Below are positions 2,298-10,256 of a stretch of 35,999 nt of DNA, in pieces. Position numbers and translations under genes: made by a program. The notes under the pieces are model-generated. The model made no database searches. It saw only the letters and a program-made list of their open reading frames with translations, and was not told where the DNA came from. How positions within the stretch are numbered: position 1 is the stretch's first letter; the number at the start of each line of letters is the position of its first letter. This stretch comes from a virus (taxonomy: Duplodnaviria > Heunggongvirae > Uroviricota > Caudoviricetes). The DNA is taken from IMG/VR virus record IMGVR_UViG_2541047899_000011; one strand, given 5' to 3'.

Positions 2298-3191
2298 ATG
2301 AGTTTAATTACGCAATTAAATGACGTAATGGCCCGTCGCGGCTATACGCAGACCCACGTCGCCCGTGCTATTGGTCGTAGCAGCGCCGTTATCAACCAGT
2401 ATTTACAGGGTAAATATCAGGGCGATATGGCTGATATTGAAGAACGCATTTCTGCCTTTGTGACCCGTGAGCGGGAAAAGGAAAACAGCCGCCGTATTAA
2501 AGCGAAATTTGTTGCCACCGGTATGGCTGCCAAAGGACTGGAAGTGCTGGCCTATGCTCACCTGGAATGTGAAATCTGCGTACTGTATGGCGCGGCAGGT
2601 CTTGGCAAAACAATGATTCTGCGTGAATACGCCGCCAGAAACCGGGATGCGGTCCTGATTGAGGCTGACCCGGGCTATACAGCCAGGACACTGCTTGAGG
2701 AGTTGTGCCGCCAGTTGGGGGTAAAAGTTCGCGGCAATATCCACGAACTGATTGATGCATGTGTGCGAGAACTGCGTGATTCCGGTCGCCTGCTGATGGT
2801 GGACGAGGCTGAACTGCTCCCCTATCGCGCACTGGAGGTTCTGCGCCGTCTACATGACAAAGCGGGTATCGGGATTGTCCTGGCGGGTATGCCACGCCTT
2901 CTGATTAACCTCAAGGGACGTCGCGGTGAGTTCGCCCAGTTATACAGCCGTGTGGCGCTGGCGCTTAACCTGGGCGATACGCTGGCGCAGGAAGATTTTA
3001 ACCAGATAGCCACCGGGCTGATGCCGGAAGCAGCAGAACCGGAAATCAGCGAGGCGCTTTATACACGTTCGCTGGGTAATGCCCGCCGCCTGTTCAAACT
3101 GGCGCGTGGTGTGTACCGGATTTGTGATATCAGCGATGCGCCGGTCAGTGTGCAGGCCATTGATAAATTCGCAGAAATGTTAATTCACTGA
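2298..3191 (+). CDS. Mu B-like AAA+ ATPase, transposition target-DNA activator
   Basis: 297 aa; N-terminal HTH-like region, Walker A GAAGLGKT, Walker B LLMVDEAE; immediately downstream of transposase. Confidence 0.85.
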   Translation: MSLITQLNDVMARRGYTQTHVARAIGRSSAVINQYLQGKYQGDMADIEERISAFVTREREKENSRRIKAKFVATGMAAKGLEVLAYAHLECEICVLYGAAGLGKTMILREYAARNRDAVLIEADPGYTARTLLEELCRQLGVKVRGNIHELIDACVRELRDSGRLLMVDEAELLPYRALEVLRRLHDKAGIGIVLAGMPRLLINLKGRRGEFAQLYSRVALALNLGDTLAQEDFNQIATGLMPEAAEPEISEALYTRSLGNARRLFKLARGVYRICDISDAPVSVQAIDKFAEMLIH

Positions 3192-3205: not shown

Positions 3206-3430
3206 ATGGACAAGCAGACCATTAACGCCGTCCGTTCCCGTGCCCGTGTGGCCATTCACACCACCGGCGGTCGTGTAACGGGACAGCATCACCGTTTACC
3301 TGTGGTTTATGCCTGCCCGCCCGTGGGTGGTCCTGTATGGCCGGTAACGGAAATCATCCAGACATTCAGCGGCCTGCGCCGCGTGGTGAAAACATCCTGT
3401 ATCGACGGCTGCACCGTCGTATGGCAGTAA
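3206..3430 (+). CDS. hypothetical early-region protein
   Basis: ORF with GGAG 9 nt upstream of ATG 3206; an alternative ATG at 3191 overlaps the B stop. Confidence 0.45.
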   Translation: MDKQTINAVRSRARVAIHTTGGRVTGQHHRLPVVYACPPVGGPVWPVTEIIQTFSGLRRVVKTSCIDGCTVVWQ

Positions 3431-4952: not shown

Positions 4953-4986
4953 CAGGCGTAAACCCGCCGGGGCTGGCTTACGCCTG
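4953..4986 (+). promoter_or_regulatory. leader hairpin upstream of gene 5004-5390
   Basis: CAGGCGTAA ... TTACGCCTG stem enclosing a GC-rich loop, preceded by a 40-nt AT-rich tract and followed by GGAG and ATG. Confidence 0.45.
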
Positions 4987-5390: not shown

Positions 5391-5410
5391 CTCTGACTTC
5401 GTTTTTTTAT

Positions 5411-5434
5411 GGCGCAGGTAAACAGGTCTGCGCC
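5411..5434 (+). promoter_or_regulatory. related leader hairpin upstream of gene 5454-6170
   Basis: GGCGCAG gtaaacaggt CTGCGCC; shares TAAAC...CGCCTGAAT..GAGAAAT with the 4953-4986 element. Confidence 0.45.
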
Positions 5435-5453
5435 TGAATAAGAGAAATTCATT

Positions 5454-6810: not shown

Positions 6811-6987
6811 ATGAAAAACCGTAAAGCAAAACGACTTCTTTTACAGCGACCTGTGCGTGTGGTGGAGCTGGTTATTAGCAACCATAAGATAGCGGTACTC
6901 CATCCATTTGGTCAGGTGGCTTTTGCCGCAAAGCGTAAGCCTACTGCGTCACAGAACAGGCGGAATAAAGGGTACGCAGTACGATGA
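6811..6987 (+). CDS. small basic protein, paralogue 1 (58 aa, MKNRKAK...)
   Basis: Not in the ORF track (below 60 aa); translated by hand: MKNRKAKRLLLQRPVRVVELVISNHKIAVLHPFGQVAFAAKRKPTASQNRRNKGYAVR. Confidence 0.4.
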   Translation: MKNRKAKRLLLQRPVRVVELVISNHKIAVLHPFGQVAFAAKRKPTASQNRRNKGYAVR

Positions 6988-7160
6988 AAAACCGTAAGGC
7001 AAAAATTCTGTTAGCTCGCAGAAACGGCTTTGATGTCTGGCGGTGGGTGAGGATTAGTAACAGACGGTTGAGGTTGACAGGGTTTTTAGGGGGTATGGGG
7101 CACAGTTGTTGCCAAAAGCCCAGCGCGGCGCAAAACCGCAGGAAAAATCACGGTATGTAA
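6984..7160 (+). CDS. small basic protein, paralogue 2 (58 aa, MKNRKAK...)
   Basis: ATGA stop-start overlap with paralogue 1; MKNRKAKILLARRNGFDVWRWVRISNRRLRLTGFLGGMGHSCCQKPSAAQNRRKNHGM; shares the N-terminus and a C-terminal QNRR motif with paralogue 1. Confidence 0.4.
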   Translation: MKNRKAKILLARRNGFDVWRWVRISNRRLRLTGFLGGMGHSCCQKPSAAQNRRKNHGM

Positions 7161-8069: not shown

Positions 8070-8099
8070 TTCACCACATTGAGCAAATAACAATCAAGC

Positions 8100-8127
8100 G
8101 CAGACCAAAACATATGTTTTGGTCTGC
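8100..8127. repeat. perfect 28-bp palindrome GCAGACCAAAACATATGTTTTGGTCTGC
   Basis: Exact dyad symmetry centred on CATATG; a third copy of the half-site GTTTTGGTC at 8138-8146. Confidence 0.8.
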
Positions 8128-8149
8128 CAAAAGTAGTGTTTTGGTCATT

Positions 8150-8428
8150 ATGAAGATTGAACAAATCGGAATGGCAGCTTTCAGGCAACAGGCTGAAAGC
8201 GGTGGCGTGGATGAGTTCGTCGTGCAGCGGTTCGGTGGTGTGTATCACCTCTTTGCTGTGAATCGTCGCGCCGGGGTGTCCTATTTTCTACAGGAACGCC
8301 GTGGCGATTACAAGACGTGGCTGTCTCTTGACCGTGCCGCTGCGTTCCTGTCAGGGATTGGCGTTTCACGTTTTACCGTGCGTTTTGAGGATAACAAACA
8401 TGCTGAAAAAGATGATCGGAGCCATTAA
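8150..8428 (+). CDS. hypothetical protein (92 aa)
   Basis: ATG 8150 just downstream of the palindrome; an in-frame ATG at 8114 lies at the palindrome centre; no clear SD for either. Confidence 0.4.
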   Translation: MKIEQIGMAAFRQQAESGGVDEFVVQRFGGVYHLFAVNRRAGVSYFLQERRGDYKTWLSLDRAAAFLSGIGVSRFTVRFEDNKHAEKDDRSH

Positions 8429-8813
8429 AGCCGGTCAGGCGTATCTGGGGTGGGATGATGTCCTTTATCGCCAGACGCTGGCCCGCCTGACCGGTAAAAC
8501 CAGCACCACACGCTGCAACCTCGATGAACTGCGCATCATCCGGGAATACATGCACGAACAGGGATTTCCGCGTAAAGCCCCCGCCGGTAAAGGTCGCCGC
8601 CCCCGTGTGGCAATGAGCAGAAAATCGGTATTATCCAAAATTGAAGCGTTGCTGGCTGATGCCGGTCGTTCCTGGGCATATGCGGAAGGACTGGCATCTC
8701 ACATGTATAAGCAACATGTGATCGAATGGCTGACAGATGATCAACTGTTCGGGGTGATGGTGGCGCTGACAAAAGACGCCAGAAAACGAGCCAGAGCAGC
8801 ACGTAAACAATAA
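8400..8813 (+). CDS. gemA: GemA-like regulatory protein
   Basis: 137 aa from ATG 8400; LGWDDVLYRQTLARLTGKTSTTRCNLDELRIIREYMHEQGF and C-terminal WAYAEGLASHMYKQ resemble Mu GemA; located just before mor. Confidence 0.7.
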   Translation: MLKKMIGAIKAGQAYLGWDDVLYRQTLARLTGKTSTTRCNLDELRIIREYMHEQGFPRKAPAGKGRRPRVAMSRKSVLSKIEALLADAGRSWAYAEGLASHMYKQHVIEWLTDDQLFGVMVALTKDARKRARAARKQ

Positions 8814-8818
8814 AGAAT

Positions 8819-8846
8819 CAGCCCCTGCCTTGCAGGGGCTTTTTTG
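8819..8846 (+). terminator. intrinsic terminator after gemA
   Basis: 8-bp GC stem GCCCCTGC/GCAGGGGC (8821-8828 / 8832-8839) followed by TTTTTT (8840-8845). Confidence 0.7.
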
Positions 8847-8851
8847 TGGTC

Positions 8852-8879
8852 TGTACAGGCGATCATGTATGGCTATAAT
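8852..8879 (+). promoter_or_regulatory. candidate sigma70-like promoter upstream of mor
   Basis: TGTACA (8852-8857), 16-nt spacer, TATAAT (8874-8879); about 30 nt upstream of the mor start. Confidence 0.35.
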
Positions 8880-8908
8880 AACAGTAAGTTACTACCGGAG
8901 ACGCCATC

Positions 8909-9376
8909 ATGCAGACCTTCAGTGAAACAGATCTTCGCGATGCGCAGGCACTGCTGCCCGATTCCGTGCAGCAACTGATTAGCGTGATTGGCTTCCCCGC
9001 CCTGACCCGGTTGATTCGTTCTTTTGGTGGCGTGACGTTAAGCGGTAAAACCGGCGTACACGCCGGACGCACCGGCGGTGTCCATGCCCTGTTACATGAT
9101 GTGCTGACCGAAGACGAAATCAACAAACTGATCCGCTTTCTTGGCGGTGCACCGTTTTACATTCCCCGTTGTGATCATGCGTTACGTGCCCTGCGTAACA
9201 CCCGTTTTATGGCTGATTTACAGCAGCATGTAAAAGACGGATGCTCACACCGGCAGGCGCTGGCACTACTCTGTCCCCGTTACGGGATTTCAGACCGGTA
9301 TGCATGGCAACTGATACACCGACGACAAAAACAGACTTCGCTGAAAAGCCCCACCCAGGTGGGGCTTTTTGATTAA
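8909..9376 (+). CDS. mor: Mor/C-family transcriptional activator
   Basis: 155 aa; C-terminal region with GGAPFYIPR and an HTH-like segment typical of Mu Mor/C; follows gemA. Confidence 0.75.
   Translation: MQTFSETDLRDAQALLPDSVQQLISVIGFPALTRLIRSFGGVTLSGKTGVHAGRTGGVHALLHDVLTEDEINKLIRFLGGAPFYIPRCDHALRALRNTRFMADLQQHVKDGCSHRQALALLCPRYGISDRYAWQLIHRRQKQTSLKSPTQVGLFD
9346..9371 (+). terminator. intrinsic terminator-like hairpin overlapping the 3' end of mor
   Basis: Stem GCCCCAC/GTGGGGC (9348-9354 / 9359-9365) then TTTTT (9366-9370); lies inside the last codons of mor. Confidence 0.55.
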
Positions 9377-9402
9377 TGGGCCTCAGAAAAAAGGAGACAC
9401 TT

Positions 9403-9681
9403 ATGACCAACTATACGGCACTTGGCGAGTATACGGCCTACTCAGAGCAGGCCCGGGATGCTGCCGGACGCCGCTTCGCTTATATGAAAAATCTGGCCAG
9501 CCAGCTAAACCGAATGGCCGAACAACCGGATATGGTTGTTCAGGAAGAAGCGTTGCAGTGTGCTATTGCTGACATCATCGCCAGCGAAAACGAGATGCGC
9601 GCAGCGATGGAAAAGGCGAACGCCTCTGCTCCGCTTTGTAATAAACCTCTTATTACGCCGGATTCCCTTTCCCGCTTCTGA
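9403..9681 (+). CDS. hypothetical protein (92 aa)
   Basis: ATG 9403 with AAGGAG 6 nt upstream; no Mor/C-like motif. Confidence 0.45.
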   Translation: MTNYTALGEYTAYSEQARDAAGRRFAYMKNLASQLNRMAEQPDMVVQEEALQCAIADIIASENEMRAAMEKANASAPLCNKPLITPDSLSRF

Positions 9682-9700
9682 TTTATCACCCCGCCGCTGC

Positions 9701-9718
9701 GGGGTGCTGAACTCCCCC
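9701..9718 (+). promoter_or_regulatory. late-leader motif copy 1 (GGGGTGCTGAACTCCCCC), upstream of lysis genes
   Basis: Shares GTGCTGAAC-CCC with the copies at 17862 and 29813; overlaps hairpin 9687-9706. Confidence 0.4.
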
Positions 9719-9863
9719 AGCAGTACCCACCATACCAGACCGTTTACCCTGTCCACTCAGACCACAAGGCACCTTAAGGGATAGCGCCCTGCAAAAGGCT
9801 TTTGTGCCTTTGACAGGGTGTTATTTACGGGCCGTCAGTGGCTCAGATTTACAGGAGAAACTC

Positions 9864-10256
9864 ATGTCTGAACCCTTATCAGGCGGCGGAGCTGTGGCAG
9901 TCACCATCGGTGGTGCCAGTGTGTTTGGCCTTCTCACCAATACCGATTTCGGGGTTGTGGTGGGCGCGTTTGCCGGGGCGCTTTTTGTTGTCACGCAGCA
10001 GAAAGAAATCCCGGTCTGGCGAATGGCTATCCACCTGCTCGTCGCGTTTGTGGTTGGCGTTCTGGGGGCTGGCGTGGCTGCGTCACTGATGCAGTGGCTG
10101 ACCCACTACAACGACAAGCCGCTCGATGCATTGTGTGCGGTCGGTGTCTCTGCTTTATCCATCAAGATACTGACTTTTCTTTATCAACAGGAAATTTCAT
10201 CGCTGTTCAGCCTGTTTTCCAGACTGCGCGGCGGAGGGGGCGGAAATGGAAAGTAG
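9864..10256 (+). CDS. multi-pass membrane protein, holin candidate
   Basis: ATG with AGGAG upstream; 3-4 hydrophobic helices and a charged Gly-rich C-terminus; first gene of the lysis cassette. Confidence 0.5.
   Translation: MSEPLSGGGAVAVTIGGASVFGLLTNTDFGVVVGAFAGALFVVTQQKEIPVWRMAIHLLVAFVVGVLGAGVAASLMQWLTHYNDKPLDALCAVGVSALSIKILTFLYQQEISSLFSLFSRLRGGGGGNGK

Follow-up and report, generated by a model that had tools for sequence, protein, structure and literature searches.

Tandem dyad operators are known from phages and plasmids, among them those of HipB, which have the form 5-N8-5 (TATCC-N8-GGATA), and those of lambdoid and 434-type repressors. On RNA, Com of phage Mu binds the mom mRNA and controls its translation, and at com-mom, as with the MS2 coat protein and T4 RegA, loops or bulges are recognized and the stems covary. 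The reference list of one source (PMC3820752) cites the gem operon of Mu for its constitutive expression in lysogens, and another source (PMC12407980) describes the operon as molecularly uncharacterized. GemA is a protein still lacking molecular characterization, and Mor-family activators time the lytic programme of transposable phages. Herein, we describe an array of inverted half-sites that stands directly upstream of a gemA-mor block in a prophage of Escherichia coli.

The window, by which we mean the whole stretch of 35,999 nucleotides that was analyzed, is a Mu-like prophage with ner at its left end and reads rightward. The ner gene (1-237, HTH_35) is followed by the transposase gene (237-2279, Mu-transpos_C and HTH_Tnp_Mu_1) and the B ATPase gene (2298-3191), after which small accessory genes stand in series up to ORF92. 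ORF92 (8150-8428, + strand; 92 aa, phrog_7844) overlaps gemA (8400-8813, + strand; Pfam PF06252, E 3.8e-18) by 29 nt at its 3' end. A terminator-like hairpin with a T6 run lies 3' of gemA (8820-8846, + strand) and closes the ORF92-gemA unit. The gene for the Mor-family activator (8909-9376, + strand) comes next, with a sigma-70-like site upstream of it (8852-8879), and the lysis and structural genes are located downstream. Of 5426 complete E. coli genomes, 58 carry a prophage of this family, EPEC E2348/69 and several STEC strains among them, and no phage record of INPHARED belongs to it.

The hairpin behind gemA reads AGCCCCTGC-CTT-GCAGGGGCT before its T6 run, and the site ahead of mor reads TGTACA-16-TATAAT, matching the sigma-70 pattern at 10 of 12 positions. 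Mu differs here, in that gemA and mor overlap and no terminator stands between them. At the 3' end of mor, a perfect 12-nt inverted repeat (AAAAGCCCCACC/GGTGGGGCTTTT, 9344-9369) with flanking A and T runs overlaps the stop codon and resembles a bidirectional terminator. Among the accessory genes, two adjacent genes of 58 aa (6811-6987 and 6984-7160) both belong to phrog_1380 and are therefore read as a tandem duplication. Positions 7000-7137 share 87-88% DNA identity with phiV10 and with the O157 typing phages 9 and 10, from which it follows that this phrog_1380 accessory gene is common to unrelated phages. Leminorella grimontii carries the prophage twice, and there the ORF92 block is separated from gemA by an inserted HNH_3 endonuclease gene (L017/L018, 3492-4076).

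The first-pass annotation of this DNA reported a perfect 28-bp palindrome at 8100-8127, and this was confirmed by direct reading and by script: GCAGACCAAAACATATGTTTTGGTCTGC is its own reverse complement, with arms of 14 nt. No other perfect palindrome in the 36-kb window has arms longer than 7 nt, the longest palindrome arm in 200 shuffles did not exceed 11 nt, and the calculated expectation for arms of at least 14 nt in 36 kb is about 1.3e-4. The dyad symmetry and its inverted half-sites thus exceed chance, as would be looked for in an operator. The window contains only three exact copies of the 9-mer GACCAAAAC/GTTTTGGTC, at 8103-8111 (+), 8116-8124 (-) and 8138-8146 (-). The third of these had also been noticed earlier and is an exact copy, although its spacing is not exactly the 11 nt first given; it begins 10 nt past the end of the palindrome and 22 nt, start to start, from the second half-site. 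When one mismatch was allowed, 15 sites were found against 9.3 expected, with no enrichment outside the array.

A fourth, weaker half-site, (G)CCAAAAG at 8127-8133, was overlooked in the description of the locus as three evenly oriented half-sites. With it, the order becomes forward, reverse, forward, reverse (-> <- -> <-), and the locus resolves into two tandem dyads, CCAAA-N8-TTTGG-N4-CCAAA-N8-TTTGG, which cover 40 bp (8105-8144) and end 5 nt upstream of the ORF92 ATG at 8150. Dyad 1 is the perfect palindrome (8100-8127), with arms at 8100-8110 and 8117-8127 and a centre (8111-8116) that is free to vary. Dyad 2 is the imperfect palindrome GCCAAAAG-TAGT-GTTTTGGTC (8126-8146), in which the arms are invariant and the centre (8133-8138) varies. 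The dyad centres are 22 bp apart, or about two helical turns. Each dyad contributes two of the four units that can be aligned in register among 10 lineages: unit 1 (CCAAA, 8105-8109, +); unit 2 (TTTGG, 8118-8122, -), 8 nt past unit 1; unit 3 (CCAAA, 8127-8131, +), 4 nt past unit 2, part of the weaker half-site and the best conserved of the four across the family; and unit 4 (TTTGG, 8140-8144, -), 8 nt past unit 3 and inside the half-site at 8138-8146. In the four prophage sequences checked there was one array per prophage and no secondary dyad.

It had further been suggested that, as RNA, the palindrome would hide an ATG at 8114 in its stem. A8114 and U8115 lie in the loop, and this ATG is not a conserved start: an ATGT centre puts it out of frame, the GTAT centre of E2348/69 has no ATG at the equivalent position, and every homologue begins with MK.E at the position equivalent to 8150. 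The gene annotated by PGAP is mostly the one of 279 nt. Position 8114 was therefore rejected as a start, and the question of its being hidden is moot.

The palindrome had been placed where the accessory cassette meets the gemA/mor block, and megablast against other E. coli prophages bore this out, many alignments beginning at window positions 8085-8092. At least five unrelated upstream contexts converge on this point and have only about 15-25 nt before the palindrome in common, within the conserved A-rich leader AAATAACAATCAAGC (8085-8099, + strand), the first stretch of the conserved block and the site of the mosaic junction. These alignment starts and contexts together make the array the first conserved sequence element of the ORF92-gemA-mor block, abutting the variable cassette. 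By blastn, the 68-nt element was detected among the 5426 E. coli genomes only in this prophage family (58 genomes). The half-site search that had been proposed returned the exact 9-mer, within the window, only at the array, and there were no extra copies of the 68-nt element in the 5426 E. coli genomes, so that a host factor is not indicated as the binder. A literature search returned nothing on the array sequence.

An element exactly at a mosaic junction, joined to at least five upstream contexts, might be no more than a recombination linker, retained as the place where prophages exchange modules, or a palindrome perfected by template-switch (quasi-palindrome) correction, with no regulatory function. 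Similar hairpins (CAGGCGTAAA...) do occur at different intergenic places in related phages, and template switching would make a single event of the one compensatory double change in the family, which is found in E2348/69. We nevertheless hold this explanation to be improbable, on account of the way in which the array has diverged.

Among 25 distinct E. coli-type upstream sequences, 20 differ within the 60 nt compared. Variation in these 20 is confined to the dyad centres (8112-8115 and 8133-8138), to the closing (8111/8116) and terminal pairs, and to four single arm changes, all of them rare. The centre of dyad 1 appears as ATAT, ATGT or GTAT, and that of dyad 2 as GTAGTG, GTAATG, GTGATG, ATGATG, GCAATG or GCGATG. 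The lineages L043 and L179 are considerably further removed, with 61-63% third-codon identity to the window in ORF92 (61% in L043), that is, about 39% synonymous divergence, and only 38-63% identity over the 60 nt upstream. Within the same 50 nt, L043 has changed at 0 of 33 arm positions and at 6 of 17 non-arm positions (Fisher p = 0.0008), and L179 at 0 of 33 and 3 of 17 (p = 0.035). Recent transfer of a linker fails to explain arms without a change when the non-arm differences are interspersed with them. About 17 arm positions are open to a transition that would preserve G.U pairing, and none is changed in L043 or L179, which points to a constraint on the sequence and not merely on the pairing.

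The same conclusion is suggested by more distant relatives, namely sequences from Leminorella, Intestinirhabdus and Logan and IMG/VR contigs with 62-76% identity in ORF92. Ten lineages align without a gap over the 40-nt array in the register 5-8-5-4-5-8-5, even though their spacers are unrelated; a linker would not be expected to keep this register between spacers that cannot be aligned. In the distant relatives the array reads CCARA-N8-TWTGG-N4-CCAAA-N8-WWTGG, the ATG follows unit 4 after anything between 2 and 10 nt, and the position of unit 4 is occupied by GGA(A/T)TGG, which carries a Shine-Dalgarno sequence. Pairing is lost in several of them (TATGG in L022 and L047; ATTGC in L017 and L048), and the predicted RNA folds differ from one to another. 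The only change of spacing that we saw is a 1-nt deletion, ATAT to ATA in the centre, in L178 (1880-2435), a decaying copy of the locus in which ORF92 is frameshifted into the gemA frame. Judged by these alignments, the thing conserved is the motif and its phase, not the helix. The substitution pattern shows the arms, and not the spacers, to be under purifying selection, and the array travels with ORF92. On this comparative evidence the array is functional, with sequence and phase both under selection.

This combination of frozen arms, freely varying centres and constant phase is the mark of half-sites that a symmetric protein reads on duplex DNA. We therefore tentatively favour, ahead of an element acting in the mRNA, the interpretation that the array is a set of DNA sites to which a protein binds sequence-specifically and under a constraint of phase, and through which the ORF92-gemA block is gated; our confidence in it falls somewhat short of even. 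The two dyads could be tandem operators for one dimer or for two cooperating dimers of a protein that is probably phage-encoded. From its position within the long rightward early operon, where the conserved ORF92-gemA(-mor) block begins, the array might act as a gate on early transcription, either a roadblock or an autoregulatory brake, and would hence influence the amounts of GemA and Mor made. Protein binding, DNA rather than RNA as the target, the identity of the binder and the regulatory consequence are four steps that we infer.

The first-pass annotation had preferred an operator to a terminator, and much in the array agrees with that preference: the half-sites are conserved around variable centres, the spacing is fixed across relatives, and no U-tract follows on the + strand. 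A classical operator would also overlap or adjoin a promoter. No consistent sigma-70-like promoter was present at or beside the array in four E. coli-type contexts or in five distant relatives, and L022 was the only relative with such a promoter there; the scans were for sigma-70-like sites, activator-dependent promoters falling outside their scope. A local sigma-70 promoter under an operator was thus rejected for the contexts and relatives scanned. Because the array has no promoter of its own and departs from the classical promoter-operator layout, a gating action can only be deduced, and a roadblock has to be assumed.

We considered which protein might bind. Ner and the immunity repressor, which is of the Phage_CI_repr type, are unlikely, because the c-ner intergenic region of a sister prophage, corresponding to sequence upstream of window position 1, carries a different set of dyads (GGATAAC-N8-GTTATCC-N4-GGATAAC; L023, 3400-3440) and a single 9/10 match to the half-site, AGACCAAAAG at 3319-3328. 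Mor is also an unlikely candidate, since the motif occurs once per prophage and is absent elsewhere in it, including ahead of the late operons; moreover, a Mor dyad centred at -43.5 would put the start of transcription inside ORF92. A transposase end or enhancer site was likewise rejected, since the end sites read ATT(C/T)TGGAC and not (G)TTTTGGTC, the operators of Mu differ, and L048 has the array beside SSB and terminase genes. The left ends of these prophages begin with TGTGGGG followed by three ATT(C/T)TGGAC(T) repeats (L023, 2320-2470; L176, 2680-2830; L177, 1-160), which are presumably the sites (L1-L3) where the transposase of this phage group binds and which differ from the Mu consensus.

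The most economical candidate would be the product of ORF92, with the array as its autoregulatory operator. Among the matches listed, ORF92 is the only gene that always adjoins the array, and wherever a true match is listed from the viral and metagenome scans, ORF92 follows it directly; in L048, the array and ORF92 have no gemA neighbour. The phrog_7844 family is tiny, comprising 13 clusters at 90% identity and 7 representatives at 50%, with F11, G19, N38, R51, W57 and V77 invariant. ORF92 matched no Pfam family and is encoded by no INPHARED phage record. Its structure was modelled with confidence as an eL38-like (alpha/beta) fold, of which the structural neighbours among viral proteins are all uncharacterized, with no annotated relative. 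We put forward autoregulation as a conjecture from co-occurrence, in which ORF92 is the sole constant partner. In its full form the proposal is that ORF92 may be a small nucleic-acid-binding autoregulator of a new type, that the array may be its operator, on DNA or in its own mRNA leader, and that the pair may form a self-contained gate on GemA and Mor, and hence on the early-to-late switch, in Mu-like prophages of pathogenic E. coli. We regard this full form as rather unlikely.

The eL38-like fold counts in favour of a different explanation, in which the array forms a double hairpin in the early polycistronic transcript and controls the translation of ORF92 or the stability of the mRNA, and through the overlap gemA as well. 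We consider this possible, albeit less probable than half-sites on DNA. Such an element could occlude a weak ribosome-binding region, possibly together with a bound protein; it could serve as a 5' stabilizer after cleavage in the A-rich leader; or it could be a barrier to 3' exonuclease. With no promoter nearby, the array is certainly transcribed within the operon. The fold of 8070-8175 is more stable than that of shuffled sequences (z = -3.6). Hairpin 1 (8100-8127) has a 12-bp stem, a 4-nt loop and a dG of -18.4 kcal/mol, and hairpin 2 (8126-8146), which is weak (-5.9 kcal/mol), ends 5 nt before the ORF92 AUG. In the E. coli type no Shine-Dalgarno sequence can be recognized ahead of ORF92; in distant relatives unit 4 itself provides one. 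An array that abuts the start codon and overlaps a Shine-Dalgarno sequence speaks against a target on DNA, and an mRNA element fits this position equally well. Hairpins that lack a U-tract and stand just before a ribosome-binding site count on the same side: two of unrelated sequence precede gemA in Mu and in the Mu-like Klebsiella phage ST405-OXA48phi1.1, and others occupy two gaps of the present operon (4953-4986 and 5410-5436). The latter two are both followed by GCCTGAAT, and in L022 a further hairpin that shares their 5' arm (AACAGGCGTAAA.CC) lies immediately ahead of the array (about 2875-2915); these may be examples of a 'boundary' hairpin that recurs in the early operon.

The stem changes C8101T, A8104G, C8111T and C8127T all leave G.U pairs on the + strand, the double change of E2348/69 replaces C-G by A-T (A-U in RNA), and disruptive changes in the stem are limited to the closing and terminal pairs. 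However, four G.U-compatible changes out of four give only p ~0.06, and the covariation is not significant, since 98.2% of cells were paired as against 97.8% in shuffles and 60-146 of 500 shuffles were as good. At about 39% neutral divergence the arms show neither a G.U nor a compensatory change, and neither the pairing nor the predicted fold is kept in the distant relatives. The loops vary in sequence and never in length, a pattern not usually seen in RNA hairpins or in RNA-protein operators. A search of the whole window against Rfam 15 gave no match at the gathering score, the best (19.8 bits against 55.8) being to an unrelated plastid family. It could be that the arms are frozen because each unit has two alternative pairing partners in RNA. 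On balance, we prefer the half-sites on DNA. The bracketing of ORF92-gemA in this prophage type, by the array on the 5' side and the terminator-like hairpin on the 3' side, would suit a gated unit and a discrete, stable mRNA alike.

The stem-loop of hairpin 1, a stable one with 6 G-C pairs in its 12-bp stem and the dG given above, has what would be expected of an intrinsic terminator. On the + strand, a terminator was rejected: the stem is followed by CAAAAGUAGUG, with no U-tract, and a consensus scan made no call. The earlier statement that no U-tract follows therefore holds for this strand. It does not hold for the - strand, where the tail is T-rich, and there the consensus scan called terminator-like structures in four upstream contexts, with the tails GCTTGATTGT, TTGGTTGTTA, ATTTGATTAC and GGTTGATTAT. 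Termination of leftward (antisense) transcription is even so highly improbable. No leftward promoter-like site was found to its right in 8150-10000 and there is no plausible - strand gene, the U-tract is interrupted, and the four single stem variants become A.C mismatches on this strand. In addition, distant relatives do not keep the A-rich tract, and units 3 and 4 are left unexplained.

The array is a sharply defined, single-copy and constrained cis-element at the entrance to the gemA/mor block, and its 40 bp, made up of four units, offer a concrete handle for experiments and lead to clear predictions for mutants. It may assign a function to the orphan phage protein family phrog_7844, and it marks where accessory cassettes are exchanged in these prophages, including those of EPEC E2348/69 and several STEC strains. 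Should it be only a stabilizing hairpin, it would be ordinary.

Set beside the described systems, the array most resembles the tandem dyad operators of repressors, with which it shares short conserved inverted half-sites, free centres and fixed spacing, as well as two dyads about two turns apart, one perfect and one weaker, at a single site by a small gene. Unlike these operators, it has no promoter, it lies within an operon, with the early promoter 8 kb away, and the neighbouring ORF92 has no recognizable DNA-binding fold. The immunity operators of Mu-like phages (O1-O3 and the Ner sites of Mu) offer a second likeness, for the c-ner region of the sister prophage also combines a palindrome with an additional half-site at a distance of 4 nt. 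Motif and phase are different, however: Mu operators consist of CTTTTCAGTAAT-type repeats, and the c-ner region contains nothing of the array motif beyond the one 9/10 match. Like the com-mom operator, the array places a stem-loop immediately ahead of a start codon in a phage of the Mu type, where a bound protein might possibly decide if the ribosome loads. We know of no Com-like protein for this site, and the array departs from com-mom, MS2 and RegA targets in that its loops vary and its stems are frozen. As in intercistronic stabilizing or processing hairpins of the REP type or the RNase III sites of T7, its hairpins have no U-tract and stand in the gap before a ribosome-binding site. The hairpins that precede gemA in Mu (GGCGGTG-TTGCAG-CACCGCC) and in ST405-OXA48phi1.1 are single, GC-rich and unrelated in sequence, whereas the array consists of four phased units that are conserved at the level of sequence.
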